Assembly (NCBI GenBank): GCA_943354745.1
Contig: CALRDB010000002.1
Location: 3,679-67,678 of the forward strand
Direction of reading: 5' to 3'
Origin: Candidatus Nomurabacteria bacterium
GTDB taxonomy: Bacteria > Patescibacteriota > Minisyncoccia > Phycocordibacterales > UBA10002
Length of the DNA: 64,000 nt
In this document: in pieces, positions 9,751 to 54,122 of the stretch
How the letters are laid out: the number at the start of each line of letters is the position of its first letter
Numbering within the stretch: position 1 is the stretch's first letter
The notes under the pieces: model-generated
Database searches by the model: none
Seen by the model: the letters and a program-made list of their open reading frames with translations, nothing else
What the model was told of the DNA's origin: nothing
Translations under genes and position numbers: made by a program

Positions 9751-9875
9751 ACTAAATCAGTATATAGGAATTAATTAAAAAGTCTTTCTTATTCGTAACC
9801 ATTCGTTGGACTCCAATTCGTCCCACTAGTGGAAAAATCAGAATTTCTCACTACGGGATAACTACTTTCGTATCG

Positions 9876-11000
9876 CTATTTTTCGTGCTTGAGTGCAATT
9901 TCCAAAATTTCGCGCGCGATTACCTCGGCAGCGTCGGTCTTTGCGAAATGAAGCGCATGCTCCGACATCTGCGTGACTCGCTCCTCGTTGCCGAGAACTC
10001 TCTGTATTTGGTCTTTAAGGATGTTGACCGTGAGGTTACTCTCTTCAAGGACGTCTGTCGCTCCAGTTTCCGCGTACGCATACGCGTTTTCGCGCTGATG
10101 GTTGCCGTTCGAATCGGTGATGGGAATAAGAATTGACGGCTTACCCCACATGGCTATCTCGAAGATAGTCGAGCCCGCCCTTGAAATAACCAGATTGGTC
10201 AGCTTCCCCGCCGAAGAAACTTGTGCAGTCGAAAGGTAGCCGAACGGATGATAACGATGCTTAAAAGTATTATCTTGCAAAAGAACCTTGGACCGTGCAA
10301 GCATATCGGCAAAATGCACTTCCCCTGTCTGGTGGATAACCTCGTACTTTTGCAGTAACTCCGGAAGCGCCTGCAGTATTGTTTCATTAAGCACAAGCGA
10401 GCCAAGCGACCCCCCAATAACAAATATAACCTTAGTGTCTGGTTCCAGTCCGAACCCTGCCCGATTCGCCAGTAACGGAGACAACAGTTCATGCCGGATA
10501 GGATTGCCCGTATATGCTACGCGCCCAGCAGGAAAGAAAGTTGCAGCCTGAGGAAAAGAAACCGCGATACGAGTAGCAAACTTCCCCGCCCAGAGATTGG
10601 TCCTCCCTGGTACCGTGTCAGACTCATGAATGATGACAGGGATTCTCCAAAACCGCGCAGCAAAAAGTGCAGGAAAACTTCCAAAACCTCCCTTACCCAC
10701 TACGACATCAGGAAACAAACGATACACAAGCACCAGAGCCTTGAGTACCCCAAAGATAGTTTTAACAACATCAAAAACATTCTTTATTGAAGCATAACGA
10801 CGAAGTTTACCTGCCAAGTTGGGAAGAAAAGTAATTTCGTTTTCAAACAATAAACTCGAGTTATACGCTTCGGGTGCCATGAAAAAAAGCTGCGGAGCAA
10901 TAAGCCGCTCCTTTTTTGCGATGAGTCGAACCTCTTCCGCGATTGCAATAATCGGATAGAAGTGTCCCCCTGATCCCCCGCCGGTGAATAATATTTTCAT
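9876..11000 (-). CDS. murG: UDP-N-acetylglucosamine--N-acetylmuramyl-(pentapeptide) pyrophosphoryl-undecaprenol N-acetylglucosamine transferase
   Basis: MKILFTGGGSGGHFYPIIAIAEE N-terminus and GT28 length. Confidence 0.88.
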   Translation of the reverse strand: MKILFTGGGSGGHFYPIIAIAEEVRLIAKKERLIAPQLFFMAPEAYNSSLLFENEITFLPNLAGKLRRYASIKNVFDVVKTIFGVLKALVLVYRLFPDVVVGKGGFGSFPALFAARFWRIPVIIHESDTVPGRTNLWAGKFATRIAVSFPQAATFFPAGRVAYTGNPIRHELLSPLLANRAGFGLEPDTKVIFVIGGSLGSLVLNETILQALPELLQKYEVIHQTGEVHFADMLARSKVLLQDNTFKHRYHPFGYLSTAQVSSAGKLTNLVISRAGSTIFEIAMWGKPSILIPITDSNGNHQRENAYAYAETGATDVLEESNLTVNILKDQIQRVLGNEERVTQMSEHALHFAKTDAAEVIAREILEIALKHEK

Positions 11001-12193: not shown

Positions 12194-13252
12194 TTAACTT
12201 ACGAGTGTAAGAATAACACCAAGAAGTGCCAACATGACGGAAAGGATCCAATAACGCATCGTAACTTTATACGACGGCCAACCAAGTGCTTCGAAGTGGT
12301 GATGGAGTGGAGAAATAATAAGCAATTTCCGTCCCAGAAATTTCTTATAAAATTTCTGTGCAATAACAGATGCACTTGTGACAAACAGAGGAAAGGCGAT
12401 AAGCAACAGAACAGAAATCCCCTCCCCTTCTCCCAGGGAATCTGTCATGAATGCGACGATTGAGATACAGAGCGTCAGTGCCATACTTCCGGTTTCCGAC
12501 ATATAGAACCGTGCAGGGGGGATGTTAAACCACAAGAAAGCCAAGATTCCTCCGAGCACTGCCGCACAAAATGCAGACAAATTTATTTGATTCTGAAAAA
12601 AAGCTATCGCTCCATATGCACCGAAGATGACTGCAAAAATACCACCAGCAAGACCGTCAATCCCATCAATAATTCCTCCAGAATACACGGCAAGCATCAC
12701 CAGAGTGAAAAGCGGAATAATGAGCCACCCAAGATAAAAGGGTCCCGTGAAGGGTAAGAAGACGGCTGAAACATCCAACTTGAAATGAAACCATATACCT
12801 GCAGAGATACCCACAATACATACAATCAAAAGCCGTTTGGTAAGTGATAATCCTCCAGCCCTATAACCTCCATTCCCGCGAATCTCAAGCAAATCATCAA
12901 TCCAGCCAATGCCGGCACCGATGAGAAGGGCGAGGAGCGGGATCCACGTTTGATCCCGACTAAGAAAATCAAGCTTGGAGAAAAGTGAGGTGGTAAAGAA
13001 AGCCCCCGCAGCATACACACCAAAGATGGCGAGAGCAGCTGAAAGCCAGATCACAATACCTCCCATACGAGGAGTACCGGTTTCTCTGGTTTGATGAAGC
13101 TGGTTGAAGAGTGGTGTCTCGCTACCCTTTCCCGGCCTCTTCTTCCACATCTTATGCGTATACAAATAGTGACTGAGCACAGGTGTTATGCCGATACCAA
13201 TCGTGAAGGCAAGAAGTGCAGGGATGAAGATTTTAATAAGATCGAGTAACAT
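12194..13252 (-). CDS. mraY: Phospho-N-acetylmuramoyl-pentapeptide transferase
   Basis: GIDGLAGG motif, polytopic membrane protein, adjacent to ftsW-murG. Confidence 0.88.
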   Translation of the reverse strand: MLLDLIKIFIPALLAFTIGIGITPVLSHYLYTHKMWKKRPGKGSETPLFNQLHQTRETGTPRMGGIVIWLSAALAIFGVYAAGAFFTTSLFSKLDFLSRDQTWIPLLALLIGAGIGWIDDLLEIRGNGGYRAGGLSLTKRLLIVCIVGISAGIWFHFKLDVSAVFLPFTGPFYLGWLIIPLFTLVMLAVYSGGIIDGIDGLAGGIFAVIFGAYGAIAFFQNQINLSAFCAAVLGGILAFLWFNIPPARFYMSETGSMALTLCISIVAFMTDSLGEGEGISVLLLIAFPLFVTSASVIAQKFYKKFLGRKLLIISPLHHHFEALGWPSYKVTMRYWILSVMLALLGVILTLVS

Positions 13253-26115: not shown

Positions 26116-27171
26116 TTACATCTTAATAACTTTTTCCCAAGGAAGACCTTTTTTCCCAAAATGACCATAGGCGGCAGTCTGCAAATACCACGGTTTCCTG
26201 AGGTCAAGACGTTCGATAATCGCAAGTGGCCGAAAGTCAAAATGTTTCTTCACCAATGGCGCAAGACTCTTCCCTTTCTCGTCAATCGCGTGAACCATAA
26301 GCGGATCAATGTGGCCGATAGCATACGCGACAGAAACGAGACAATCTTTCGCGTATCCGTTTGCAACCAAATTTTTCGCCACAAACCGACACATGTAAGC
26401 AGCAGAGCGGTCGACTTTGGTGAGATCTTTTCCTGAGAATGCTCCTCCTCCATGACAGATAAGTCCGCCGTAGGTATCCACCATGATTTTGCGGCCAGTG
26501 AGTCCAGCATCTGCTTCGAATCCTCCCTGTACAAAACTCCCAGTTGGATTGACAAGGACCTCGATTCCTTGAAGCGACCCTATAATCGGAGCAATGATTT
26601 TCTTCGTAACGACATCGGTCACCTCGTCGTGCCCGACACTCTTGTCGTGCTGAGTAGAGACAAGCGCTGTGGCAATCTTGTTATCAAGAATGGTGATTTG
26701 GGTCTTACCATCGGGCTTGAGCCATTTTATTTCCTTTTTCTCTCGCGCCTCCTGAAGTCTTCGAGCCATCTTGTGTACTAACACAACACCCTTCGGTAAA
26801 AATTCGGGCGTTTCCGTCGTGGCAAAGCCGTACATAATACCTTGGTCGCCCGCACCTCCTGTGTTAACTCCTTGTGCGATATCAGGTGACTGCTCCACGA
26901 TAAAAACCTGGATATCTAACGGTTTGGTATAGCCAATACTTCTATACACCTGTGCAGCGATTTTCTTGTAATCCACCTTTGCTTTAGTAGTAACTTCTCC
27001 GCCGAGTACGAGATGTCCGTGGCTTCCAAACGTTTCTACGGCAACTCGACTCATAGGATCCTGCCTCATGCATTCGTCTAAAATCGCGTCTGAAATTTGG
27101 TCACAGACCTTATCTGGATGGCCATTGGTAACACTCTCTACGGTGTACGTCTTACGATCATGTATATGCAT
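26116..27171 (-). CDS. metK: S-adenosylmethionine synthetase
   Basis: GHPDKVCDQISDAILD, GGAGDQGIMYGFA motifs. Confidence 0.9.
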   Translation of the reverse strand: MHIHDRKTYTVESVTNGHPDKVCDQISDAILDECMRQDPMSRVAVETFGSHGHLVLGGEVTTKAKVDYKKIAAQVYRSIGYTKPLDIQVFIVEQSPDIAQGVNTGGAGDQGIMYGFATTETPEFLPKGVVLVHKMARRLQEAREKKEIKWLKPDGKTQITILDNKIATALVSTQHDKSVGHDEVTDVVTKKIIAPIIGSLQGIEVLVNPTGSFVQGGFEADAGLTGRKIMVDTYGGLICHGGGAFSGKDLTKVDRSAAYMCRFVAKNLVANGYAKDCLVSVAYAIGHIDPLMVHAIDEKGKSLAPLVKKHFDFRPLAIIERLDLRKPWYLQTAAYGHFGKKGLPWEKVIKM

Positions 27172-27256: not shown

Positions 27257-27400
27257 TATTAAAAATTAAAATCCTTCCGTCCAGGAAGAATTTGACATTG
27301 TATCTTCCCTCGCGGGCTAGATGGAGCACCGCGTTCTCACAAAACCGGTTGCCGGAGGATCCTTGAGCTAGTACTCTCCCCTCTCTCTTGATATATATTC
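27257..27400 (-). promoter_or_regulatory. SAM-I (S-box) riboswitch with intrinsic terminator in metK leader
   Basis: Minus-strand RNA AUCAAGAGAGAGGGGAGAGUACUAGCUCAAGGAUCCUCCGGCAACC…GGUGCUCCAUCUAGCCCGCGAGGGAAGAUA matches SAM-I conserved blocks (AUCAAGAGAGG, GGCAACC, GGUGC..A); hairpin CUUCCUGGACGGAAG followed by U-rich tract. Confidence 0.6.
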
Positions 27401-27489
27401 AGTTGTGACTACATAGTATCTAACTTACGAAAAACATGCAAAGTTACACGACAACTATCTATAGTAGAACTTAGGCACTCGGTCTCTTT

Positions 27490-40115: not shown

Positions 40116-41315
40116 TTAATAGCCCTGCAACTTTTTCGACTTCTTATGCTGGCGGATTTTTTCGTGAGCTTTCGCTTCGATTTGGCGGATACGTTCGCGA
40201 GTCACGCCGAATTTTTGTCCCACTTCTTCGAGTGTGTGCGTGACACCGTCGAGGAGGCCATGCCGAAGCTCTAGAATCTTTCGCTCTTTTTCTGAAAGGT
40301 CGCCGAGAATTTCCTTCACTTGGTCTCCGAGGATACGGCGGGACGATTCCTGGTCGGGAGAAAGTATCTTGTCATCATGTAAAAAGTCTCCGAGTGTTGA
40401 CTTGCCGTCGTCGCCCTCATCGCCGACTGGCGATTCCAGCGAAACGGTATCTTGGTCAATTTTTTCAATCTGGTACACCTTGTCCGTCTCAATACCCATC
40501 TCGATACCGATTTCTTCCGGAAGCGGGTCGCGGCCGAGATCTTGTGAAAGTCGTCTCACGACTTGCTTGTACTTAGCGATAGTCTCCACCATATGGACCG
40601 GCACGCGAATAGTGCGGGATTGATCGGCGAGTGCGCGAGTAATCGCTTGGCGGATCCACCACGTAGCATACGTTGAAAATTTATACCCCTTGGTCCAGTC
40701 GAATTTGTCGACAGCCTTAAAGAGACCTAAGTTCCCTTCTTGAATGAGATCGAGGAGTGTGAGGTCAGGCGAGCGTCCCACGTATTTTTTAGCAATCGAA
40801 ACAACCAAACGGAGGTTCGCTCGAGCAAGAAGATTTTTGGCTTCCATGTCTCCCGCCTGAATGCGCTTCGCGAGCTCTTTTTCGTCTTTGGCGTTGATGA
40901 GGGGGTATTGTCCGATTTCCTTGAGGTACATCTGAATCGAATCATAGGATCCTTCACTACTCTTGCCGAGGTAGACATTTTTCTTTCCATGCGGTTCCGC
41001 GACTTCTTTCTCAAGCATTCCACCACCTTCGAGTACGTCAATACCCGCTGTTTGGAATTTGGAGTAAAGTTCATCGAGGAACATGATGTCCTCTTCGATG
41101 GTAGGAAATTCTTTCAAAATGTCGTTATAGGTGATGAACCCGCGATTCTTACCCTTTGCGACAAGACGATCAGCACGTATATCACGCTCCTTACCTTTAG
41201 CCATTTTCTCGACAGGTTTTGATGCAACCTTACTCTTTATAGGCTTCTTTTTTGGAGCAACCTTTGCTTTAATGGCTTTTTTCTTCTTTTTGAGGTCTTT
41301 TTTCGCTTTTGACAT
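40116..41315 (-). CDS. rpoD: RNA polymerase sigma factor RpoD (sigma-70)
   Basis: Region 2 [17 protein letters not shown]…[10 protein letters not shown]; region 4; ORF-track start is TTG at 41387, ATG at 41315. Confidence 0.88.
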
Positions 41316-41387
41316 AGTGGCGATAGTATATCTTAAATAGCGGTAACTGCAACCGTCCGAACATACGAAGAAAAGAGTGGGTTCCAA

Positions 41388-42010
41388 AGAACCTGGGGCT
41401 GCTTAAAAAATGTAAGAAAAAAGCGACTTGAGATGCTACCCAAGTCGCTCGACACAATGCGGTACACTACTCGACCCGACCCAACTCCGCAAAACCATGA
41501 GTGACTAAACCGCAATCGCCAAACGCTCGCGAACGAGCGTTTGGCCCCAAGCAAAGGACGTGATACCGCACCGGACACCACTCAACACGACCGCGGATTG
41601 ACATAATTGCCATGCCTCCGTAAACGAAAGCACGGCCCCGTACCGTAGAACTCAGTGCAGAACAACTGGACACGAAGCCCGAGCCCACCATGCTGTGCCA
41701 TACCTAAATGTGTCAGCCGATTCGAAAATCGACTGACACCCGAACGCTACAAATGAACAGAGGACAAAACAAGACCCTGCAAAACAATACGGCAATCGCA
41801 CTCCAACCGAAGTCGGAGTGCTCCAAGCTGTAACGCTCCGGACCCTGCAACACTTGACGATACCGGACATGACCGCAGAATACACCACCGAAATAAACGG
41901 GAGGTGAAATCCACCTCCCGTTCCCAGACAGGACACAAACGTACAATGCATAACCCTACTGAACCTTACCGAACTGGACCGAAATATTCCGCACCTGCTT
42001 CCAAGTTTGG
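41388..42010. other. CA-skewed hairpin-dense noncoding block A
   Basis: + strand about 63% A+C; perfect hairpins e.g. ccaaacgctcgcgaacgagcgtttgg, cgggaggtgaaatccacctcccg, gtgtcagccgattcgaaaatcgactgacac; ORF track shows only short overlapping two-strand ORFs. Confidence 0.7.
41415..41450 (-). terminator. Rho-independent terminator (minus-strand sense) immediately upstream of rpoD
   Basis: + strand gaaaaaagcgacttgagatgctacccaagtcgc; minus strand gives 8-bp stem followed by U6. Confidence 0.6.
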
Positions 42011-42017
42011 ACCCGGA

Positions 42018-42659
42018 CTATTCACCTGCATATCCTTTCGGTTGCTCCGTCCACTGCCAGCTCACTGCCTCGAACTTCCCGTACGCGCCCCGTTGCTCGG
42101 CCGAGAAGAGACCTATCCCGATATCGCGCCCCGCACTGCCGACGAGCCTCTGGATAATCTTCTCATTAAGCGGCGCCGAGAATGAGATGAGCGCCTCACA
42201 TGACCAGTCGTCAAACTGGGGGCAACGAACGATGCCCATCTCGCGTGAGTTCGGCCTCGCGTGACGATTGCGGGAGTACACACTCCAACCGGAAGTGCTC
42301 GAGAGTATGAGATATCCTCCGATGATGCAGTATTGACTCACCTGATCCACGAAGTGGCCACTATGCCTATCCTGATACGGCCATGCCGCCATGCGAACCG
42401 CGTGCTTCAGCCACCTGCCTGGCACCGCGATACACCCACTGCGAGTGTCGCGGACAAGCAAGTCAGCTAAAGGTTGCTTTGAGATCTTGATGATCTGTTC
42501 ACGCCTGGTATGGTCCGTTATCGGATGCATAAGAAGCGGTGTGACTCCCCGTAGGTGAACGAGGAGGTATTTCTTTGATATCGGTGCCGGTAGCTTCATA
42601 ACGGAGCTCCGAACCGCGTTGGGAACTGGCATTTCTGCCATAACTGTTTTTGTGTTCAT
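42018..42659 (-). CDS. Hypothetical protein (orphan ORF embedded in noncoding island)
   Basis: 213-aa ORF with normal base composition flanked by CA-skewed DNA; no recognised domain. Confidence 0.45.
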   Translation of the reverse strand: MNTKTVMAEMPVPNAVRSSVMKLPAPISKKYLLVHLRGVTPLLMHPITDHTRREQIIKISKQPLADLLVRDTRSGCIAVPGRWLKHAVRMAAWPYQDRHSGHFVDQVSQYCIIGGYLILSSTSGWSVYSRNRHARPNSREMGIVRCPQFDDWSCEALISFSAPLNEKIIQRLVGSAGRDIGIGLFSAEQRGAYGKFEAVSWQWTEQPKGYAGE

Positions 42660-43639
42660 AAATCAATGATCTGTCCAAAACCAACATGCAGAATAACACG
42701 TTTATATAAATACGTCAACTTTCGTATAAAAAGGCGCCATCCGAAGCCGGACAGCGCCATATGATCCAAACACCGGCGAGCATTGCAACGCGATACTATT
42801 CAGAACGCTAACTAACACAAGAGCAATTTCCCGCTCCGATGTAGCATCGGAGCGGGACCCGCAACAGAAGTAACCGCACTCCGGAATACCTTGCGATACA
42901 GAGCCTAGCCCCGCCGGACCGAAATTGCCACCCGTCTTCGAAAAAACGGGTGGCCACGGACCGTACCCGGTTCTACCCGACAGGACATTAGAGTACACAA
43001 CAAGAACCAACACCACCAGAATTTCCTGCCAGCCGTAACCGGCTGACAGGACCCGGACGCTACTCGAGAGTTCAGGACAGGACCTGACTGGACAGAAACG
43101 CGCGTAACCGTAATTCCAGGCCTCTGCGTGCAGAGACCTGGTCCGTGCAAAACAGCGGAATGCACTGGCGGACAGAACAGTATCGAACCGAACCGTACTA
43201 TAGGCTAACAGGAACTTAATTCCCCAAACTCCCTCATCGAGAGTTTGGGTCCGAGCTTCACGGGACATTGCGACACGATGCGACTGCTAGACGCATCTTT
43301 CCAGAAATTCCTATCCTCCCGAGAGAGGTAGGATCCGAACAAAAAAATCTTCTGACGCACAAGACCAGACCTGACTGTAACTGAGACGGCACAAACGCAA
43401 CTGTCGAGTCCTTGTAGTAAGGACTCGACCCTGACCATGCACAACTCCACAACGCCAGACCGAACGGGACAGGGACTAAGCATACTTTTGCGCAATTTCC
43501 TGTCCGTTCTAACGAATGAACAGGACCCACACTCAACCTCACCCAACAGAACATTTGAGAGCGACGACGCAGAATACCTTACCATAGTGAACAGTTACGC
43601 CGAAGCGTACCTGCTGTTTTTCAATGCTCAAATGCTAAC

Positions 43640-43702
43640 TGCAAAGTAACACGAAAATCTATTTTAGGCAAGAAAAAGGCGTCCCGAACGAATCGAGACG
43701 CC
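43640..43702 (-). promoter_or_regulatory. Terminator (43672-43702) plus conserved 20-nt motif TGCAAAGTAACACGAAAAT (43640-43658), module copy 1
   Basis: Minus strand: GGCGUCUCGAUUCGUUCGGGACGCC-UUUUUCUU followed by UAGAUUUUCGUGUUACUUUGCA. Confidence 0.55.
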
Positions 43703-45276
43703 AGCCATAAAGAAGACAAGCCCTGGGCACGGTGCGGAACAATACCTCACCGAGCATAACCTTAATTTGAGTGCTCCGACACATCGAAGCACTCACCCTA
43801 CCGCGGACTTGCATACGAGAAGAAACCCAACCTTGCTAGTGAGTACCGAACCCAAAAGAACCACTGTGTGCGACACCGTATCTACCGATGCCTGGCAAGG
43901 CAGGCATCGGTCCTACACCCTACCGCTCTCTACCCCATGGTACCTAACACCACTGAACACTACATCATCGAAACGAAGTCTGAACGCCGATTGAGAATCG
44001 GCGTTCACCCGTACCGAACCATACCTTGCAACAATCCACAGAACTGAAACGCGCAGCAGATGACAGGACCGAAATTTGTCGTCCCGATTTGTTCATCGGG
44101 ACGACATCCGTACTCTGCGACACCGGTCATTACCTGACAGGTGCACACGCTACGTTACAGGACCATAATGTGCTATCTCGATGAAGCATCGAGATAGCAT
44201 CCGCACCACTATTGGCCGGACAATAAGATACTCTGCAACACCCGAGAATTGAGATCCATAATTTCACCGTCCCAATAGTACATCGGGACGGTGACCCAAC
44301 AAAACCATACCTGACAGGACACCGCGATACTGCAGAACACAGGAGAGGACACTGACTTACCGTAACTTCCCAGACCCTCGCAAGCGAAGGTCTGGGACCC
44401 AACCATACCGGATAACGCCGGACAACGCGCCACTCTACTACACCTGAACGCAATCGCCCATCCCGATCTTAATCGGAATGGGCTCCGAGAAAAACCGTAC
44501 CGTAGAATACACTGCCTTAACACACGAAACGGTGACATACGGAACCGCATTATTCTGCTTCAACCGAAGTCAAAGCAGAACCCACACCGGACATGAATTC
44601 ACCGTACAACACCCTACCCCACTTAAGATGACAAGAGAGCGATAGGTCGCCCTGACCGAAACCAGAGCAACCCCCTACAGAACAGCGCATCGCCACAGGA
44701 TTGCACGCGCTACATAACCAAGCCGGAGCGCAAAGGCTGTCCCGATCGAAATCGGGACGGTCCCGAAGCAAACGGCACGTTTGCGCACACTTGATTACAG
44801 AACTTGAATGCAACATGCTGAACTGAGGCACTGCGTATATACCGCTCCGACCGAAGTCGAAGCGGCTTCGCACGCTACGCTACCGTGCGGGACACAAACA
44901 GACGTTACACCACTCTACGTAACCGCGATACATCACGCGCTCACTGAGCGCGTGATGCCCCCCGCCGCACCAAGCGACACTAAACCCCGACGGACAGAGG
45001 CTATCCTGAACGTGCCACAACTGTCATGCACCGTGAGATGCATGACATCAGCGACAAGCATTACCAGGCCTGACAGAGACACGCCTTGCAGTACGTTTCC
45101 TAGCCTGACCTAATCCTGCGAAACCAGAATTTACCACCCCGACCAGAGTCGGGGTGGTACCCGAGGAAAGCATTAGCTGACCTGACATAAAGACGGAAAG
45201 CCCCACCTATGCTTACTGGGCCGAACGCTACCAAATTTAACTCATTTTCAGTTGACAATGAGCTACTAACGAATTT

Positions 45277-45356
45277 CAAAGTAACACGAAAATAGAGATA
45301 ACGCAAGATTCGCAATCCTGCAAGAAAAAAGGCGTTTTGAGAAAACTCAAGACGCC
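45277..45356 (-). promoter_or_regulatory. Terminator (45325-45356) plus conserved motif CAAAGTAACACGAAAAT (45277-45293), module copy 2; terminates helicase gene
   Basis: Minus strand: GGCGUCUUGAGUUUUCUCAAAACGCC-UUUUUUCUU then …CUAUUUUCGUGUUACUUUG. Confidence 0.55.
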
Positions 45357-45378
45357 GTCGATTGACCTGCAATGGAGA

Positions 45379-47214
45379 TTACTTTCCAAACATCCGCTTC
45401 ACCTCCGCTACCGCCTCGGCGAAGCTTTTGCCACCGTCGTAGTATTGGCGAAGCCCTTCAGAGAGCCGTGGCCAAACGATCTTCCGAAACTGCTGTGAGA
45501 TAAATATGATAGCCCCTTTATCCTTCGGACTCCGAATGTTCCGCCCCATGTGCTGAAGTGACTTGATCCCCACGCGCCATTGTTCAAGTTTGAAATGAGT
45601 GCTTTCACCCCACTTCCTCACCTCGAACACACTTGCTGGATCATCCGGCCTGCTGTATCCAGGACGAAGATCGAAGATGACCGGCGCGAGGCCGTCAGGA
45701 AGATCGAGCCCTTGCCCGAAGTTCGTTTCCGTACCGACCAGAGTCATACCGAGACCATCTTTGAACTCCTGCGCGGCAGTCCGAGCCATTCGTTCACCGC
45801 CATAGCTCACAGTGTCGAGACCCAGATTCGTCGAGTGAACCAAGAATTGATCACGCTCATCGTTTGAGACGACAATGACCAGACTCCGAATCCCCATGTC
45901 CGCCCACTCCTTGCACGCCTTGACCATGCTCTTGAGCGCTTTCTTCAGATCATCGGGCTTCCGGTTCTTCGTTGAGAGGTCCGGCGTATCGGACGGCATG
46001 AAGATCTTGGCGTTCTGTGGAGGAAAGCTTGACGGAAGCGAGAGAAACTCTCCTTCTTCCATTCCGGTTTCCCAACCGAACGTGTCTTTATCCCCGACAG
46101 TAGCCGAGAAGGCCGCGTACTCTTCGCCCAGTATTGAGCGGATGATAGGCGCCACTGTGTGTGCCTTAATCACCAGCTTATGCTGAACGCGCTTACCCTC
46201 CGCGAGTTCCTGCTGATGAAAGGCGTAGCTGTAGTTCATCCTTTTCCGTTTCAACGTGTCGAGCGAATACTCGAACGAGTGAATGTACCGGCGGATATCC
46301 CGCACCAGCACCTCCACTTGGCGAAGTGTTAGGGCCTCTTCCACTTCATCGACGGCCCCTTCACCTATTGCTTTGATGAGCTTATCTCCCAGCCTCGCCG
46401 GATTAATCGCTTCAAGCAGACCCATGAGCTCGAGGATTTCTCCATCCTCAATGATGGTCGGCTTCCACGCAGCCTTCTTCTTAACGATGTCAATCATGCG
46501 TTTCTGAAACTTCGCGAGAAGATCCGTCTCATCGACCTCAAGTCTCTCGAGTAGTTTGACGGCTCGACCGAGGTGATAGTCACTAATCTCGTAAGAGAGC
46601 GTGCGACGAACCACGTCGCCCATTAGGTGCGCTTCGTCAATGACGAGCACCTTCGGCTTCTCCCACCGCTTCGTGAAAAGCTGAGAGAAGAGATAATACG
46701 CAAAGGTGCAGAGCACGATTGGCGCGTTCATAGCCTTGTGGGTGAAGTGATAGTACTGACAGCGCTCCGCGTCCTTCTCGTGCGTCTCCCCCGTTTTGAG
46801 GTTGACGCGATGCGGACAGTTCCGCAGGAAAGAGCAGGCGATTTCATCCGCGCGATATTGAACATCTTCCGGCTTGGTCTCAAGCGAGAATCGTTCATCC
46901 GCGTTGTCCTCGTAGTAGTAGCACGGGAAATCATGTTTACCCACCACGATGGCGAGGTCGAGATATTCCCGATAAATCTGCTGGAGGATGGTCTTGTTCG
47001 GCGTGATGAGAAACAGCGGTTTCTTGCCCGCGTTTGCCGCGGCCTTCAGAATGGCATACTCGACGGCAGTCTTGCCGTGGCCGGTCGGCATCTCAATGAT
47101 GGACTTCGGATGCTGTGCCCAGAATTCGAGAACCTGCCGCTGTTGCGGGCGCATAACGCTGTGCTTCTCTGACGGAAATGCCGAACAGAGTTCGGCAAAG
47201 GTTTGTCTGCTCAT
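45379..47214 (-). CDS. DinG/XPD (Rad3)-family ATP-dependent DNA helicase with Fe-S domain
   Basis: Walker A EMPTGHGKT, DEAH box VIDEAHLM, four Cys between motifs I and II; ORF-track start TTG at 47256, ATG at 47214. Confidence 0.75.
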   Translation of the reverse strand: MSRQTFAELCSAFPSEKHSVMRPQQRQVLEFWAQHPKSIIEMPTGHGKTAVEYAILKAAANAGKKPLFLITPNKTILQQIYREYLDLAIVVGKHDFPCYYYEDNADERFSLETKPEDVQYRADEIACSFLRNCPHRVNLKTGETHEKDAERCQYYHFTHKAMNAPIVLCTFAYYLFSQLFTKRWEKPKVLVIDEAHLMGDVVRRTLSYEISDYHLGRAVKLLERLEVDETDLLAKFQKRMIDIVKKKAAWKPTIIEDGEILELMGLLEAINPARLGDKLIKAIGEGAVDEVEEALTLRQVEVLVRDIRRYIHSFEYSLDTLKRKRMNYSYAFHQQELAEGKRVQHKLVIKAHTVAPIIRSILGEEYAAFSATVGDKDTFGWETGMEEGEFLSLPSSFPPQNAKIFMPSDTPDLSTKNRKPDDLKKALKSMVKACKEWADMGIRSLVIVVSNDERDQFLVHSTNLGLDTVSYGGERMARTAAQEFKDGLGMTLVGTETNFGQGLDLPDGLAPVIFDLRPGYSRPDDPASVFEVRKWGESTHFKLEQWRVGIKSLQHMGRNIRSPKDKGAIIFISQQFRKIVWPRLSEGLRQYYDGGKSFAEAVAEVKRMFGK

Positions 47215-47356
47215 AATCAGTCTTCGGATGTTTGATGTTTGGTGTTCCCTTGTCAAAATCCACTCCCGAAGGAGTGAACTGGAGTCTTAGCCCCGTGCTA
47301 ATCCTCGACGCACACTAACAGGATTTCTCGTCTACGTCAAGGTTTGGTTACGGGTC

Positions 47357-47385
47357 TGTCATTCCCTTGGAAAAGGGAATTCAGT
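47357..47385 (+). repeat. Hairpin repeat family copy f
   Basis: ctgtcattcccttggaaaagggaattcagtg. Confidence 0.65.
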
Positions 47386-48380
47386 GCTGTAGTCCAAATA
47401 TAAAAAGCGCCTCGACGAATCGAGACGCTTATTCCTGACCCAACAAAAGAGCACCTCACATTGGATGAGAATACCCGAACTGACAATACCCGACCGAGAA
47501 GGACCAAAATTGAAGCGTTCCCGAAAACGAGAACGCTTCCCCGCACAGGACACTACCTGACTGCACTGAAACCAACCACTCCGAAATTGAAGCGTCCCGA
47601 CGAATCGAGACGCCTCATCCGGACTCGAGCATTCACAAACGAACAGGACGGAACCTGACTGAACGACGCCGCATGCCACCTCAATCGGCATTCCGCTTTA
47701 GAAACGGAATACCCCCGTACCTTACCTTTGAAATGAGAGGCAAAATTCGAGCATCCCGACTAATTCTCGGGATGCTCGCCTGACAAAGGTGTACCATGAT
47801 TGAGCGAGCCGGCGAAAACCGACTCGCTCCCGAACAGAACTCTACGTCACGCCTCCGAAACAAACGACTGCCTACGGGGCGATACAAAACAGGTGCATAC
47901 GAAGACTTGCCGTAATTGCCGAACACCTTCGAAAAGGCGCTCGGCTCCACACCGAACCTGTTCTCGCAGGACACTACAACAGAAATGTTGGCTTGAGCTA
48001 ACTCATGCAAGCCACACGGCACATCTGATGACCTCAACTGAGCGAGCCGGCCGAAACCGACTCACCCCCGAACGTAAACAGACAGCTCTGCACGGGACAA
48101 TAGCGCACCCAACCTAAACCGACACCACCTGACCATAATTACCAAGCTCCTACGAACAAGAGCTTGGTTCCCGAGCGTACCAAGAAGCGCGAAACAGAAC
48201 AGTTGACTGCGAAACATGACTTTAGAGAACCACAATTGTCGAATCCGTGCTCGCACGGATTCGACCCGAGGAATGACTCAAACAAACATACTGGACTGAA
48301 CGGAACTTTACACTTGTGTGCCCCAAAATAGGTGACCGCAATCACTGCGACAACGAATTGTCGAAGTACGAAATACCGAG

Positions 48381-48432
48381 TGCAAAGTAACACAGAAATA
48401 TAAAAACGGCAAGTCTCGTGAAAGACCTGCCG
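48381..48432 (-). promoter_or_regulatory. Terminator (48403-48432) plus conserved motif TGCAAAGTAACACAGAAAT (48381-48399), module copy 3
   Basis: Minus strand: GGCAGGUCUUUCACGAGACUUGCC-GUUUUUAUAUUUCUGUGUUACUUUGCA. Confidence 0.55.
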
Positions 48433-49135
48433 TATGACTACATTACCTGACCTTACCCTACCCAACCGTACCTTGCCTCAAAGAACAAGACCTAACCGTG
48501 CCACATTCTCCCGCCCCTCTTGCGAATGGCGGGACCCGTGCCATAATCGACCTTACTGAACCTTACCTAAGAGGAACCGGCGGAAGAATCCTCTGCCGAA
48601 ACTTGACGAGCACTTTCGGAAAAGTGCTCGTCCCATGCTGCAGTTCAGATTACTACGCGTCACCTGACCGCGCGAGACGCTACGTTACCGCACTGTAGCG
48701 AGCCGATTGTTATCGGCCCGCTCCCGAACAAAACCCGACACCACGTTAGCCCGCAGAACTGAACCAAGCTTGAGCGTATTAGTGGACAGCTCCGCTAGGA
48801 GCTGTCCAACCGATACCTTTTCATAACGCACTGAACAGTGGATTACAAAACGGGACACTGCACCACCGGACCGTAATCAGTATCCCGACTTTCAGCGGGA
48901 TACTCCGGTACCGAACAGGACAGGGCCATACTTAGGAACACTCAAAATGAGCACACCTGACTTGACCGTACCGCAATTGCCAAACTTCTGCGAACAGAGG
49001 TTTGGCTCCACACAGCGCCTGTGTTCACAGGACTACAGGGTACAAAACCTGACGATTGAGTACGACAGGATACGAGACCGAAATGGTCGGCGGAAATGCT
49101 TTTCCGCCGACACCGACAACAGACTGAACTCTGTC

Positions 49136-49167
49136 AAAAAAAAGCGGAGGTACCGAAGCACCTCCAC
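49136..49167 (-). terminator. Strong rho-independent terminator (minus sense) after hypothetical gene
   Basis: Minus strand GCGGAGGUGCUUCGGUACCUCCGC followed by U8. Confidence 0.7.
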
Positions 49168-49188: not shown

Positions 49189-50010
49189 TTACTCGGTAGC
49201 TACCGGAGCCGGACTGAGTCCCGCCACGCGTTTTTCGAGAACCTTACTCGACATTCGGCCGTTGTCCTCCGTCTTCGGAGCATGCTTCTCAGCCTGGCCG
49301 ACGTACTTGATTTCAATGTCGTCATTGATCGGTTCGATCTTGATTACTTCGAACTTCGAAACACGAAACTGTCCGTAGGAACCGGGCTTGTTTGGGGCCG
49401 AACCGCGCCAGTCGCCGAGACCGGATTTTTCGCCGGCCTTCTGCCAGAGCTGGAGCACGGTGTCGTCAGAGAAGTCAGGGTCCTTGAAGGTGAACTCAAT
49501 CTCGCACGCCCACTTCGGAATTAAAGGGCGGACCGTACGATTGGACCCCTTGGTCTGTTGGTTGACGGTACGACCCGCGTGAACTTCCCACGGAGTGTTC
49601 GCTTTCGCCTCCTCCTCCCCCATCGGCAACGCCTCGGTCGCAACTTCCCCGTTCGCATCGAGCCCCTTGAAGGCATAGAAGCGTTTGGTGAAGGTCACGA
49701 TGCTGGGGATTTCGGTTCCGCCACCTGACTTGGTGATGGCCGACGTGCGCTTCCCTTTCTTGACGGAGATGTGCTTCCCGCCGTTACAGAGGGTGGCCAT
49801 GAGGTTGTCCATTGGCCAGCCCATTTCACCGTTCGGTCCGCGATAGAGCTTGGCCTGAGCAACCACAACATCTTGGATGTCGCCGCGCTTGGGCGTTGCC
49901 GCTTTTTTGCCGCCGATCTCTTCAAGTGTACCGAGAAGCATGGGGTTTTGGATTGCTGCGGTTACTGAATCCAGTAACATCCGCACTGTCTTCTGCTGTC
50001 TTTCTGCCAT
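49189..50010 (-). CDS. Hypothetical protein (273 aa)
   Basis: Long ORF with balanced composition directly downstream of dnaG; no recognised family. Confidence 0.5.
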   Translation of the reverse strand: MAERQQKTVRMLLDSVTAAIQNPMLLGTLEEIGGKKAATPKRGDIQDVVVAQAKLYRGPNGEMGWPMDNLMATLCNGGKHISVKKGKRTSAITKSGGGTEIPSIVTFTKRFYAFKGLDANGEVATEALPMGEEEAKANTPWEVHAGRTVNQQTKGSNRTVRPLIPKWACEIEFTFKDPDFSDDTVLQLWQKAGEKSGLGDWRGSAPNKPGSYGQFRVSKFEVIKIEPINDDIEIKYVGQAEKHAPKTEDNGRMSSKVLEKRVAGLSPAPVATE

Positions 50011-50137: not shown

Positions 50138-50227
50138 CAAAAGCACACGCGATTAGCTCGACCAAACTAACAGAGATACGAAATTTTGTCAATAGTACGT
50201 AGTAAAGCAGGGTACCGTGTAAACGAG

Positions 50228-51982
50228 TTAAGAAGTCGTAGTAAACCGGTGGGATTTGAGGGCTCCCAATTTTTGGGTGAGTTCTTTACACTTTGCCAGC
50301 AGGGCTTGCGTCTCTTCTTTATTCCCGTCGTGCTCTGATTTGGCCAGTGTGTCCATTGTCTCAGAAAGAAGCATCGTAATATGCTCTTGTTCCAAATGAC
50401 GAAGAAGCTCCTCTTCCTCACTTACACCGGGCGAGGTATCCCCGTAGAGCGCTTCGGCTTCAAGCAAGAGAACATCAGCAAGTGCTTTATAGTGCTCTAC
50501 TTTTTTATCGAATACCTCCTTTTCAAAGATGCGGAGAAGTGCAGTCTGTAACCGCTCGAACAACAACGTATTCTTCTGCGACTCCGAAAGAAGATAAATA
50601 CTAAACACCCTCCGTTCAAGTGTATTCGAACGAACCGGTGCGGTAGCTTTACGTAATTCAGGTATTTCTTTTTCTCCAGCGACAGCCGGTACTTTTTTAA
50701 ACGCCTCCCAGAGCGCATCTTCCCGAAGACCGCTTTTCTCGGCGATTACTTTTATAAAATGGGATTGCTCAACAGGAGAAGTGAGAAGGCGGAGAAGCGG
50801 AAGTAGCGTCTTCTCAATCGCGAGCGCACGTTCCCTTCCCTCCTTGGAAGCATTGATAAGGTTAAGAAGAAGAAAATCAATAACGTGCTTTGATTCTGTT
50901 ACCGCCCTGTCCCATTCCTTTGGCTCCTTCAAAATAAGTTCAGCGGGATCTTTGCCTCCCCCGATCGCAATAACCTTCACATTCATACCAAGGGCGAGCG
51001 CCAGTTTTATCGCACGCTCGCTTGCTCGCACACCCGCACTATCCGCATCAAACGAAAGCAAGAGATTTTCGGACAGTCTTTTCAGACGCACAAGTTGTTG
51101 TTCGGTGAGTGCTGTCCCCGAAGATGCGACAGCATTCTCATGACCAGCTTGATGCACCATAAGAAGGTCCACTTGTCCTTCAACCAGTATCGCCGCGTCC
51201 TTTTGTCGTATCACGAGTTTCGCGCGGTCAAATCCATACAGGACTTCGGACTTATTGAAGAGCACGGTCTCGGGGCTGTTGATATATTTGCCTGTCTTTC
51301 CATCATCAAGTCTGGGGAGAATACGTCCTGAAAATGCGATAACTCGTCCCGCACTATCCCGAATCGGAAACATAATCCTCCCCCGGAAAGTATCATAGTA
51401 TTTCTTAGGACCTGACCCTGTGTGCCCTACAGAATCGGTTTGGTTGGCAATTTTAATCAAGCCGACCTTTCCCATTTCTTCCGGTGTAAATTTTTCCCGA
51501 GTGAGATAGTCGAATAGTTGCCTCCACTCCGCGGGGGCAAATCCTACTCGCCAGTCTTGTAGCGTTTTTTGGGTGAGACCTCTTCCGTCTATGTACACCT
51601 TCGCTTCAGCTGTAGCCCGCAATGTTTCTTCATAAAATCTCGTCGCTTTTTCGAGACAGAGATACAACCGTGCGTATTCGCTCTGTACCTTTGGATCAAG
51701 CTTAGTCAGGGTGACTCCCGCACGTTGCGCGAGCACCCGTAAAGCACCAATAAAGTCGAGTCCTTCAAACTCCTGCACGAACGTGAAAATATCCCCCTTT
51801 GCCTGACACCCGAAACAGTAATAGGAGTTGCGAGCAGGCGAGACAAAGAACGACGGCGACTTCTCATTGTGGAATGGGCATTTAGCCTTATAGGAAGTTC
51901 CTGCACGCTCAAGCTTTAGGTACGATCCAACCACATCGGCGATACCTAATCTTTCTTTAATTTGTTCAACCGGAGTGGACAT
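50228..51982 (-). CDS. dnaG: DNA primase
   Basis: Zinc-ribbon CPFHNEKSPSF…CFGC; TOPRIM domain; 584 aa. Confidence 0.9.
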   Translation of the reverse strand: MSTPVEQIKERLGIADVVGSYLKLERAGTSYKAKCPFHNEKSPSFFVSPARNSYYCFGCQAKGDIFTFVQEFEGLDFIGALRVLAQRAGVTLTKLDPKVQSEYARLYLCLEKATRFYEETLRATAEAKVYIDGRGLTQKTLQDWRVGFAPAEWRQLFDYLTREKFTPEEMGKVGLIKIANQTDSVGHTGSGPKKYYDTFRGRIMFPIRDSAGRVIAFSGRILPRLDDGKTGKYINSPETVLFNKSEVLYGFDRAKLVIRQKDAAILVEGQVDLLMVHQAGHENAVASSGTALTEQQLVRLKRLSENLLLSFDADSAGVRASERAIKLALALGMNVKVIAIGGGKDPAELILKEPKEWDRAVTESKHVIDFLLLNLINASKEGRERALAIEKTLLPLLRLLTSPVEQSHFIKVIAEKSGLREDALWEAFKKVPAVAGEKEIPELRKATAPVRSNTLERRVFSIYLLSESQKNTLLFERLQTALLRIFEKEVFDKKVEHYKALADVLLLEAEALYGDTSPGVSEEEELLRHLEQEHITMLLSETMDTLAKSEHDGNKEETQALLAKCKELTQKLGALKSHRFTTTS

Positions 51983-52072: not shown

Positions 52073-52867
52073 CTAAGGGGCCCCAGAAATGGGGTCCTTT
52101 GTGCTTTTTAGGGCCTCTTTTGAGCTTTCTTCGCCGTTCCAGCAGATAAAATCCCGCAGTTCAAAGATGTCGAAAATAAACAGACCTTCCTTCACCAAGG
52201 CGTTCAGCTCGCGGGAAACTCTGCCGGCTGTAGCGAATAATACAACCTTTTTACCGTTTACAAGTAGGCTTTTTATCGGGTCGGCAAAGTCGCTATCCCC
52301 GCTCCACAAAACAAACGTGTCGACATTATCCCGCAGGTCATCTATCCGCATATCCGTGCCTATCTCAACGTCAAAATTGCATTTCCTGTCCTCTATGGAG
52401 TAAATACCTTGTGCATTCATCTCCTTGAACTTATTGTTGAGAAACTCAACTGTTTCGATACTGTACTTCCTGAGCAGAGATTTCCTCATGAATTTCTTCA
52501 ACAAATCCGGCGACTGCAAAGAAATACTTGAGACGTCGATTGGCAACTTCATTATCTTTACCGACTTAGTTCGTATTTCGTATTTGCATCGCTCTAACTT
52601 TTTTATTTCTTCTCGGGAGTGGGGGTCGCCGACTAGCTCTCCTTGATACCATTTTATGGAACCCACACTCTCAAAAGATTTGAGAAACTGCTTCAAACGA
52701 TTTGGACTGACATGCCATTTTAATTTTTCCGACCAAGGACGGACATTGGCAAAATCAATATAGGTGTTCGTTTTGCCAACGAAAAGGCCATCCACCTTCT
52801 GCACCGTAGGCATACGGTCCTCTCTCTTTGCCAGCTCTTCAATTCTTTGGGTCTTGGGCGTGAACAT
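52073..52867 (-). CDS. NYN/LabA-like domain protein (predicted RNase)
   Basis: C-terminal LWSGDSDF signature of NYN domain. Confidence 0.6.
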   Translation of the reverse strand: MFTPKTQRIEELAKREDRMPTVQKVDGLFVGKTNTYIDFANVRPWSEKLKWHVSPNRLKQFLKSFESVGSIKWYQGELVGDPHSREEIKKLERCKYEIRTKSVKIMKLPIDVSSISLQSPDLLKKFMRKSLLRKYSIETVEFLNNKFKEMNAQGIYSIEDRKCNFDVEIGTDMRIDDLRDNVDTFVLWSGDSDFADPIKSLLVNGKKVVLFATAGRVSRELNALVKEGLFIFDIFELRDFICWNGEESSKEALKSTKDPISGAP

Positions 52868-52871
52868 GCTT

Positions 52872-53084
52872 TTAGCTTACTTTTTGGTAGCGGTAGTTAT
52901 ATCGAATAGAGTCATTGAGGAATTGCCCATGCGAGGATGAGCCGAGAAATTGCTGATACAGATGGACAGGAACATCAAAATACTGGTACACATCACCTGA
53001 CGTGAACTCCACCTCTAAAATTGCCGACGATGCGTCGTAGCCGATTGAACTGATATTTGAGGATGATACGGGTGTGCGGTACAT
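52872..53084 (-). CDS. KTSC domain protein
   Basis: ISSIGYDASSAILEVEFTSGDVYQYFDVPVHLYQQFLGSSSHGQFLNDSIRYNYRY matches KTSC pattern; start at MYRTPV. Confidence 0.6.
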   Translation of the reverse strand: MYRTPVSSSNISSIGYDASSAILEVEFTSGDVYQYFDVPVHLYQQFLGSSSHGQFLNDSIRYNYRYQKVS

Positions 53085-53085
53085 A

Positions 53086-53301
53086 TTACTTTTCTGTGAA
53101 GAGAACCATCTCGTTGGTATCAACGAAATGGCTGTGGATAACTTCGCCACTATTCTCACAGGCTGTTTTAGCCTTATTTAAGGCCGTCAAAAAGTTACGA
53201 TAGTCAGTATATTCCAGAACCTTGGCAAGCTCCCGCGATGACCAGTATTCCTTGCCATCGTTATCTACCTTTTTGATTGTCTCAAATATATTTTCTTTCA
53301 T
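53086..53301 (-). pseudogene. Bro-N/DinD-like N-terminal domain only (truncated, 71 aa)
   Basis: GKEYWSSRELAKVLEYTDYRNFLTALNKAKTACENSG resembles N-terminus of DinD/Bro-N antirepressor-like proteins; ends abruptly; overlaps KTSC ORF in another frame. Confidence 0.45.
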
Positions 53302-53315
53302 GCTTTTGTGAATAC

Positions 53316-54122
53316 CTACGATTTCATTGCAACCAATACCTGCACCTGCACCTTTTCACGGAATATACCACTTGGTTCACAGTTCAAGAGCTTCTGCTTC
53401 AGTTCTTCCTCAAACGCTTCTATCCTATCACCAAACATTTCTCGACGCGCGAAAGAGGTAGAATAGAGATACCCGATAGCCTGCTCAAGCGACCACACTA
53501 TCTCATAGTCATGTATCCATTCATCATATCCTCCGAATGGTGACTCTTCGAGGAGTTCCTCCCAATCTTTCCACTTCTCGAGAAAAGAGCCGTTTCTTCG
53601 CTCTTCTCCTAGATACTTTTGAATGACCTCTTTGCGCACTTTCTTCCACTCTTCTTTGTTGTTTGTCCAACCGGAGGTTGGATTCTGAATAAGTGCCACA
53701 CCTCCTTGAGCCTCAGATACCCCATAGATTTCTTTCAGTACCTCTGCCCCATCCCTCCAATGAAGCGACGCTCCCGCTGTCGCCAATCGAAATGTCCCCA
53801 TCTGTTCGCTGATATCCTCTGCCTTTCCCGTAATCCAGCGTACATTTTTTACGTTGCGCTTCTGTGCTTCTTTTTTTGCCTCCATGATCATATCCGGCTC
53901 GATATCGAGACCTACAATTTCCTCAAAATCTTTCGCGAGCGGAAGCAGAATCTGTCCGGTTCCGCAACCAAGGTCAAGAAGTTTCCCTTTTCCATTCAAT
54001 TGGAAATACTTCCGAAGATAGGCGAACATCTCCTCTGGATACCATGGTCGGTACCTGGCGTAATACGAAGATGCTCCATGGAACAGCTTACGTTGGTCAC
54101 CTCCTTTTGGAAAAATACTCAC
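53316..54122 (-). CDS. Class I SAM-dependent methyltransferase
   Basis: LLDLGCGTGQ (motif I), GLDIEPDMI (motif II). Confidence 0.75.
   Translation of the reverse strand: MSIFPKGGDQRKLFHGASSYYARYRPWYPEEMFAYLRKYFQLNGKGKLLDLGCGTGQILLPLAKDFEEIVGLDIEPDMIMEAKKEAQKRNVKNVRWITGKAEDISEQMGTFRLATAGASLHWRDGAEVLKEIYGVSEAQGGVALIQNPTSGWTNNKEEWKKVRKEVIQKYLGEERRNGSFLEKWKDWEELLEESPFGGYDEWIHDYEIVWSLEQAIGYLYSTSFARREMFGDRIEAFEEELKQKLLNCEPSGIFREKVQVQVLVAMKS

Follow-up and report, generated by a model that had tools for sequence, protein, structure and literature searches.

The subject of this report is a gene locus in a 64,000-nt stretch of the genome of a Candidatus Nomurabacteria bacterium (NCBI GenBank assembly GCA_943354745.1, contig CALRDB010000002.1, positions 3,679 to 67,678). 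The whole stretch is called the window here, and coordinates given without a genome handle are those of the window. As listed in Table 1, two small paralogous genes (vipr1 and vipr2), a helicase gene and five non-coding minus-strand stretches of ~4.7 kb in total lie between dnaG (50228-51982) and rpoD (40116-41387). The non-coding stretches are predicted to be arrays of guide RNAs and are named A to E. Read along the minus strand, the order is promoter, vipr1, terminator, array A, terminator, promoter P3, array B, terminator; then promoter, DinG-type helicase, terminator, P2, array C, terminator; and finally P1, array D, terminator, P0, vipr2, array E, terminator. A preliminary description of this DNA had pointed out a short motif recurring in three nearly identical copies, and these copies turned out to lie in P1, P2 and P3. 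In the following, the arrays, the proteins and the predicted promoters are described, and it is argued that the locus represents the recently reported Viral Interference Programmable Repeat (VIPR) class.

Table 1. Predicted features between dnaG and rpoD in the order of minus-strand reading. L004, L006 and L008 are three related genomes.
Feature	Position	Strand	Description
vipr1 promoter	50164-50192	-	TTGACA-N14-TGT-TAGTTT; orthologs L004 3853, L008 3675
vipr1	49189-50010	-	Vipr-family RAMP protein, 273 aa (263 aa in public call); G-loop GLGDWR, VRP thumb
vipr1 terminator	49167-49144	-	strong, with U8; precedes array A
vrRNA array A	48434-49140	-	~8 units
Terminator	48406-48433	-	last hairpin of array A + U-tract, -18.6 kcal/mol; overlaps P3 -35 box
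Promoter P3	48412-48384	-	TTGCCG-N14-TGT-TACTTT; ahead of array B; same composite module in L006, L008
Motif copy 3	48381-48399	-	TGCAAAGTAACACAGAAAT; core of P3
vrRNA array B	47431-48370	-	~10 hairpin-capped pentamer-repeat units; from P3
Terminator	47405-47430	-	last hairpin of array B + U-tract, -16.6 kcal/mol; TTTTTATATTT tail
Helicase-gene promoter	47312-47340	-	TTGACG-N14-TGT-TAGTGT
Helicase	45379-47214	-	DinG/XPD(Rad3)-type, 611 aa, four invariant cysteines; putative vipr-accessory (vap) gene
Terminator	45325-45350	-	intrinsic terminator of helicase gene, -14.1 kcal/mol; precedes P2
Promoter P2	45306-45278	-	TTGCGT-N14-TGT-TACTTT; ahead of array C; ortholog L004 7906-7934
Motif copy 2	45275-45293	-	TTCAAAGTAACACGAAAAT; core of P2
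vrRNA array C	43703-45265	-	16 units; from P2
Terminator	43678-43702	-	last hairpin of array C + U-tract, -18.8 kcal/mol; precedes P1
Promoter P1	43671-43643	-	TTGCCT-N14-TGT-TACTTT; ahead of array D
Motif copy 1	43640-43658	-	TGCAAAGTAACACGAAAAT; spacer end + extended -10 (TGT TACTTT) + GCA of P1
vrRNA array D	42759-43630	-	~9 units; from P1
Terminator	42733-42758	-	last hairpin of array D + U-tract; precedes P0
Promoter P0	42690-42718	-	TTGACG-N14-TGT-TATTCT; ahead of vipr2 + array E; orthologs L004 9090, L006 13368, L008 9434
vipr2	42018-42659	-	paralogous Vipr-family protein, 213-aa ORF (204 aa in public call); G-loop GIGLFS
vrRNA array E	41451-42015	-	6 units; directly after vipr2, no terminator between
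Terminator	41421-41450	-	last hairpin of array E + U-tract; locus end, ahead of rpoD

The five arrays together comprise about 47-49 units of ~95 nt, with 6-16 units per array. Each unit consists of AAU, 12-13 pentamers of the form Y-N-N-(G/U)-G, and a hairpin. Behind each array promoter, a small leader hairpin precedes the first pentamer tract. I found 47 hairpins with stems of 10-14 bp (typically 12-13 bp) at ~95-nt spacing; the loops are 3-6 nt in length, mostly tetraloops and often UUCG. Hairpins are strongly enriched at 41-49 kb of the window, and with G-U pairs allowed, the minus strand forms more of them than the plus strand. The stem sequences vary from unit to unit while pairing is kept (485 Watson-Crick and 54 G-U pairs); the set was chosen as hairpins, so the pairing is 100% by construction. 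The inter-hairpin tracts are 60-65 nt in length, and 473 pentamers in 37 linkers follow one register with a mode of 12-13 per unit. Among these 473 pentamers, Y occupies position 1 in 92% and G in 0%, positions 2 and 3 have a nearly even composition, position 4 has G in 45% and U in 30%, and G makes up 74% at position 5. The linkers reach a register score of 994, compared with 679 +/- 10 after shuffling. In the arrays, the autocorrelation of GG has its peaks at lags 5, 10, 15, and 20; the helicase coding sequence shows no such peaks. The whole window has 18 strict runs, defined as six or more Y...G pentamers, and all 18 lie on the minus strand within 41450-48935. Thus, it was a mistake of the preliminary description to regard the DNA around the motif as non-repetitive; cryptic repeats with a 5-nt periodicity and hairpin-capped units fill it.

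Standard searches gave little for these units. In a repeat search of the window, the families had just 60-85% identity and regular identical repeats were absent, and Rfam returned only chance matches in 41.3-49.3 kb, both at gathering thresholds and at E <= 1. Sponge RNAs, repetitive extragenic palindromes or bacterial interspersed mosaic elements (REP/BIME), integron attC sites, and arrays of C/D or H/ACA small RNAs were considered for the hairpin units and dropped on the basis of the pentamer code and the Vipr match described below. The sense strand of the array DNA (41400-49150) is rich in G and T, with a plus-strand AT skew of up to +0.30 and a GC skew down to -0.19. A comparable AT skew at 11-13 kb and 22 kb coincides with membrane-protein genes (FtsW, a family 4 glycosyltransferase and a major facilitator superfamily protein) and is unrelated. 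The public annotation has a 188-aa gene at 42702-43268 on the minus strand (L001 13947-14513), within the array D region. This open reading frame (ORF) is probably spurious, as such array ORFs probably are in general, because the G+U-rich sense strand has few stop codons.

These units resemble the RNAs of the VIPR systems, which have been described in two preprints (bioRxiv 10.64898/2026.04.26.720920, 10.64898/2026.04.26.720927). According to these descriptions, a VIPR system consists of a minimal repeat-associated mysterious protein (RAMP) called Vipr, an accessory vap gene, and ~100-nt vrRNAs with 9-16 YNNGG pentamers and a structured 3′ tail. One Vipr protomer binds per pentamer and sequesters GGY, and the NN dinucleotides read double-stranded DNA with a 1-nt skip. 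Seven types are described there, with variant pentamers (YNNNG, NNNGG) and variant array architectures. Predicted nucleases or helicases are reported for types III-V, nucleases only for III and V. The reference system, that of Escherichia phage SUSP1, is of type II and has four vrRNAs. In this study, vrRNAs were recognized as at least four (typically 9-16) tandem YNNGG, YNNNG or NNNGG pentamers in intergenic DNA flanking vipr.

The products of vipr1 and vipr2 are paralogs of each other. Neither has a match in Pfam, NCBIfam or PADLOC, and no Csf or Cas match was found there. Word-based homolog searches gave only four clusters for one and two for the other, while an exhaustive profile search of the family gave 3642 cluster representatives. 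It was revealed that a profile of 63 family members matches the SUSP1 Vipr protein (PDB 36pp_D, "SUSP1 Vipr protein") with E = 1.1e-15 over residues 1-193 of 202. The clade of the window's Vipr1 alone matches SUSP1 Vipr with E = 0.0012 in the segment containing the thumb and the G-loop. In addition, phrog_4652 is matched by all 63 sampled relatives. No Nop domain was found in the three proteins of the locus or in the 63 family members. It is reported that the thumb residue R138 and the G-loop residues D177, W178, and R179 of SUSP1 Vipr read the GGY bases (bioRxiv 10.64898/2026.04.26.720920, 10.64898/2026.04.26.720927). The VRP and GLGDWRG of Vipr1 align with the YRP and GVGDWRP containing these residues. 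In contrast, Vipr2 and its orthologs have GIGLF(S/T) in place of G(L/V)GDWR, so that they have lost those residues to which the reading of G1 and Y3 in GGY has been ascribed. Vipr2 may be a specialized, cap-like subunit. A Foldseek search with an AlphaFold2 (AF2) model of Vipr2, a low-confidence model, found only Cas7-type RAMPs, such as type VII Cas7, Csm3, and Cmr4.

The helicase has DEAD_2, Helicase_C_2 and ResIII domains, and its four invariant cysteines are as in the iron-sulfur helicases of the XPD/DinG type. Its best match in the defense libraries is the PADLOC model typeIV_DinG (PDLC01439), over the full length with E = 1e-41. Its homologs are annotated as Patescibacteria, Paceibacterota or Parcubacteria. 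A single-protein query of species-representative genomes with the helicase found nothing, while a scan of such genomes with a helicase alignment detected 72 helicase loci in many Patescibacteria lineages. A Vipr homolog lies within 4 kb of the helicase gene in 68 of the 72 loci, and ten have two paralogs. Strict in-register pentamer runs number 273 on the helicase strand and seven on the antisense strand, and they cluster just upstream and downstream of the helicase gene. The cassette of vipr, array, helicase and array recurs in nearer and farther relatives with different housekeeping neighbors. Eight of the records (L015, L017, L028, L043, L047, L064, L068, and L080) are titled Woesearchaeota, Aenigmatarchaeota or Gammaproteobacteria in GTDB and have the same helicase, most of them with vipr as well. 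It is likely that these are mislabeled or misbinned Patescibacteria contigs.

How are the arrays transcribed? The final hairpin of each array has U's behind it where other hairpins have AAU, and thus doubles as a predicted terminator; these terminal hairpins fold at -14 to -21 kcal/mol. The preliminary description was right in placing the motif directly downstream (minus sense) of terminators, since a hairpin with a U-tract precedes each of the three copies. The three preceding hairpins have folding energies of -14 to -19 kcal/mol and z-scores of -3.5 to -6.7. The 19-nt motif itself has exactly three matches with up to three mismatches in the window, while the mean in shuffled sequences is 0.04 and none of 100 shuffles reached three. 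The near-identity of the three copies is thus borne out; only the second copy had to be shifted, as it begins at 45275, 2 nt before the 45277 given earlier. A fourth terminator with a related context had also been proposed. It is real (47430-47405, -16.6 kcal/mol) and has the tail TTTTTATATTT in common with the 48406 terminator, but it lacks the motif. The flanks of the copies are related too, with 70-72% identity over 43 nt (repeat family D5), and this family includes a degenerate relative of the motif at 42718-42690 on the minus strand, which corresponds to P0. A fuzzy search found a fourth, related copy, TTGTCGTGTAACTTTGCA, at 27454-27437 on the minus strand. It lies upstream of an S-adenosylmethionine (SAM) riboswitch (Rfam RF00162, 45 bits; 27297-27454, minus strand), which in turn is upstream of metK (26116-27171).

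On the minus strand, all three copies have the same geometry. A TTGCNN -35 box is followed by 14 nt, TGT and TACTTT, which corresponds to a 17-nt spacer and an extended -10 element. The three rows of the alignment are CTTGCC TAAAATAGATTTTCG TGT TACTTT GCA, CTTGCG TTATCTCTATTTTCG TGT TACTTT GAA, and CTTGCC GTTTTTATATTTCTG TGT TACTTT GCA. In P3, the terminator before it contributes its 3′ arm, in which the -35 box lies, and its U-tract, which makes up the spacer. A strict pattern, TTGNNN-N14-TGTTANNNT, has six matches in the 64 kb, while shuffled sequences have 0.47 on average and four at most. All six are on the minus strand (50192, 48412, 47340, 45306, 43671, and 42718), where they precede, in this order, the 273-aa gene, an array, the helicase gene, two further arrays and the 213-aa gene. 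A Bacteroidota-type -33/-7 promoter (TTG...TAnnTTTG) was considered and dropped, because the host belongs to Patescibacteria and the extended -10 geometry fits all six promoters of the locus. When the TTGCA of the motif is taken as a -35 box instead, P1 and P2 offer no matching -10 box.

Is this geometry conserved? Orthologous junctions were compared in three related genomes (L004, L006, and L008) with helicases of 54-58% identity. These junctions keep the -35 and TGnTAnnnT elements, while the spacer sequence drifts. The same geometry is found ahead of vipr1 (TTGACA...TG(T/C)TAG), ahead of vipr2 (TTGACG...TG(T/C)TAT), after the helicase terminator, and inside the arrays, where CTTGCC(C/G), a T-rich segment and TGnTAnnnT follow terminators. 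Such conservation of boxes and spacing with drifting spacers is expected of promoters and not of an RNA-level signal. Thus, of the functions that the preliminary description had offered for the motif, a promoter or re-initiation signal defining transcript units is favored by the geometry, by the six strict sites heading units, and by the orthologous conservation. L006 has at least six composite modules inside its arrays (8872-9917 and 12513-12863, plus strand), each with a hairpin ending in ...CTTGCCG, a T-run and TGnTAnnTT. Therefore, many vrRNAs of L006 seem to be transcribed individually, whereas the window has operons of multiple units.

In summary, the locus has a Vipr protein, the GGY-reading residues (in Vipr1, not in Vipr2), pentamer arrays with a structured 3′ tail, and a DNA-directed accessory gene. 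Judging from the sequence, it is most likely a large chromosomal VIPR locus in which three paralogous sigma-70-type extended -10 promoters follow terminators. The preliminary description had called it an island and had not recognized its class. Since helicases or nucleases are ascribed to types III-V and nucleases only to III and V in the published type descriptions, a helicase-linked type should exist, and the locus probably belongs to it; this placement is by elimination. The following steps may be envisaged. The RNA polymerase holoenzyme would bind TTGCNN and the extended -10 element TGT-TACTTT and would start transcription ~7 nt downstream of TACTTT, within or just after GCA. Each promoter would restart transcription directly after an intrinsic terminator. 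The arrays would then be multi-guide operons, presumably cut into ~95-nt vrRNAs. Vipr1 protomers would polymerize one per pentamer, sequester GGY and present NN to double-stranded DNA with a 1-nt skip, and the helicase may be an accessory effector acting on the bound target. The three promoters may be nearly identical as a result of common descent through duplication of array modules, and possibly also of co-regulation.

Several observations do not fit this interpretation well. The -10 hexamer TACTTT agrees with TATAAT at just three of six positions; it retains the key A at position 2 and T at position 6, and the upstream TG is also present. A relaxed promoter pattern is not significantly enriched across the window (24 matches, with a shuffle mean of 14.5 and maximum of 24). 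The spacer (TTTTCG/TTTCTG) is conserved beyond the needs of polymerase binding. The 27454 copy can be read otherwise, as its TTGCA is the -35 box of a better promoter, TTGCAT-17-TACTAT. This copy is ambiguous and may be a coincidence or part of a tandem promoter. Array A has no recognizable -35 and -10 boxes after the vipr1 terminator, and read-through or an atypical promoter is possible there. As for the proteins, the AF2 model of Vipr2 was built on a six-sequence alignment and has a low confidence (pLDDT 53). As for the guides, pentamer position 4 is degenerate, so that the published 1-nt-skip rule may not carry over. When this rule was applied within the window and the locus, no target was found for any guide, the best matches within the window being ~65%, equal to the controls. 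Eight of the ~49 guides, searched as exact gapped patterns of 20-22 bases in viral and metagenome collections, gave no matches, a search of low power. Contigs L002 and L003 do not differ from the window (100% identity) and are thus uninformative on guide turnover.

Could the motif act in another way? The copies stand at the starts of arrays next to the small leader hairpin, and they share TTTTCG and GCA outside the -35 and -10 boxes. These facts would suit an RNA-level 5′ leader or a processing or assembly signal, such as an RNase site or a nucleation site of the Vipr filament. The preliminary description had also named a processing site. However, most of the motif is upstream of the predicted start and would be outside the RNA. 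It lies past a strong terminator U-tract, where only read-through would transcribe it, and outside the pentamer/hairpin units. Moreover, it has no pentamer periodicity and is on none of the ~45 internal unit junctions, and the relatives conserve only the -35 and TGnTAnnnT positions. An RNA-level signal in place of a DNA promoter is thus improbable. A promoter with a superimposed operator, where a regulator would bind the conserved TTTTCGTGTTAC segment and switch the three arrays together, is compatible with the promoter interpretation and somewhat less unlikely. It would account for the spacer conservation in P1-P3, the strict promoter form is confined to the locus, and a TTTCGT element also occurs within the vipr1 promoter spacer and close to the promoter of the SAM riboswitch. 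Yet, the motif has no dyad symmetry, the cassette has no regulator gene, and the spacers are not conserved in the relatives. The recent duplication seen in family D5 explains the similarity equally well.

The same duplication might suggest that the copies are functionless relics, with all arrays read through from the vipr1 and helicase promoters. The related flanks and the seeming lack of an own promoter for array A, which implies that read-through must occur at some place in the locus, point in this direction. However, a stable hairpin with at least five U's precedes each copy, and the exact -35/-10 geometry is found in all copies and at the orthologous sites despite the divergence of the helicases. 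I consider relics very improbable. Even less probable is that the locus is a degenerate type IV CRISPR-Cas system, with CasDinG and RAMPs, or an array of tandem interspaced guide RNAs (TIGR-Tas), the motif being a CRISPR leader promoter. This was suggested by the typeIV_DinG match, by the RAMP-like fold of the small proteins in a low-confidence model, and by the occurrence of variable-palindrome TIGR arrays in Candidate Phyla Radiation (CPR) bacteria. However, the arrays have no identical direct repeats, and their "spacers" are compositionally biased pentamer repeats. The small proteins match no Csf or Cas family in PADLOC, NCBIfam or Pfam and match Vipr by sequence instead. For TIGR-Tas, there is no Nop-domain protein, and the tetraloop hairpins enclose no dual spacers. 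This explanation is largely refuted. The motif itself is most likely an ordinary promoter motif and the locus a notable further example of a very recently described class.

VIPR was described in 2026, mainly from phages, and the present locus shows how a large cellular VIPR may be organized. It is located amid genes for core information processing in a reduced Patescibacteria genome, and the same cassette is found in most sampled lineages of Patescibacteria. One might speculate that the DinG-linked cassette represents a chromosomal VIPR lineage found across the phylum Patescibacteria and kept vertically, in which the RAMP was duplicated and Vipr2 now acts as a cap or binds the tail, without reading GGY. 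I regard this as possible rather than likely. If true, the cassette would represent an extant transitional form, linking VIPR with its single RAMP to those class 1 effectors that have several RAMPs and are coupled to DinG, for example type IV CRISPR-Cas. The ~50 guides from several operons could then serve host-symbiont or gene-regulatory roles beyond phage defense. Owing to the typeIV_DinG match, CPR genomes could be wrongly credited with "type IV CRISPR", or the match could have a true evolutionary relationship behind it. In practical terms, the promoter motif is a concrete handle for cloning and expressing the arrays. The pentamer/hairpin grammar allows annotation of arrays that standard tools miss and where the public annotation places probably spurious ORFs. 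On the other side of dnaG, toward rpoC, the minus strand at 52073-54122 (L001 3186-5142) has a methyltransferase gene, small ORFs with Bro-N-like and KTSC domains, and a gene for an NYN-domain protein, a putative RNase.

With regard to known promoters, those of the locus resemble sigma-70 extended -10 (TGn) promoters in having a TTGNNN -35 box, a 17-nt spacer and TGnTAnnnT. They resemble CRISPR leader promoters in lying directly upstream of a guide-RNA array. Unlike in both, one locus here contains several promoters, and each of them is joined to the terminator before it. In P3 and in the related genomes, the -35 box comes from the terminator 3′ arm and the spacer from the U-tract. Type IV-A CRISPR-Cas (Csf1-3, Cas6/Csf5, and CasDinG) is similar in having RAMP proteins beside a DinG-family helicase and no adaptation module. 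In contrast, the present locus has no CRISPR array of identical repeats and no signatures of Csf1, Csf2, Csf3 or Cas6, and it has a pentamer code instead of a contiguous spacer.

CPR bacteria are known to contain TIGR-Tas stem-loop arrays whose palindromes vary. The units of these arrays have two 8-12 nt spacers flanked by box C/D within a stem-loop and need a Nop-domain Tas protein (PMC12045711; bioRxiv 10.64898/2026.09.09.750476). The likeness lies in the tandem units with variable yet palindromic stems and in the occurrence of both in Patescibacteria. Repeat finders miss both, as the sequence is not conserved. In contrast to TIGR-Tas, the stems of the present locus close tetraloops, the guide part is the pentamer tract, and the protein is a RAMP.

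The closest likeness is to VIPR. As in SUSP1, Vipr1 belongs to the single-RRM (RNA recognition motif) RAMPs of ~200-270 aa with D-W-R in the G-loop and a thumb arginine. The predicted RNAs are ~100 nt in length, with 9-16 Y-N-N-G-G pentamers and a structured 3′ tail, long intergenic arrays flank the vipr gene, and the accessory gene is one that acts on DNA. Rather than viral or proviral, however, the present locus is chromosomal, between dnaG and rpoD in a Patescibacteria genome, and its pentamers are degenerate at position 4. SUSP1 has four vrRNAs with a conserved pseudoknot as the tail, whereas about 47-49 units in five arrays are found here, each with a plain tetraloop hairpin of variable sequence. 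The accessory gene of SUSP1 encodes a DNA-binding protein, and here it encodes a DinG/XPD helicase. Finally, unlike SUSP1, the present locus has two Vipr paralogs, one of which lacks the GGY-reading G-loop residues, and its arrays are split into operons by composite terminator-promoter junctions.

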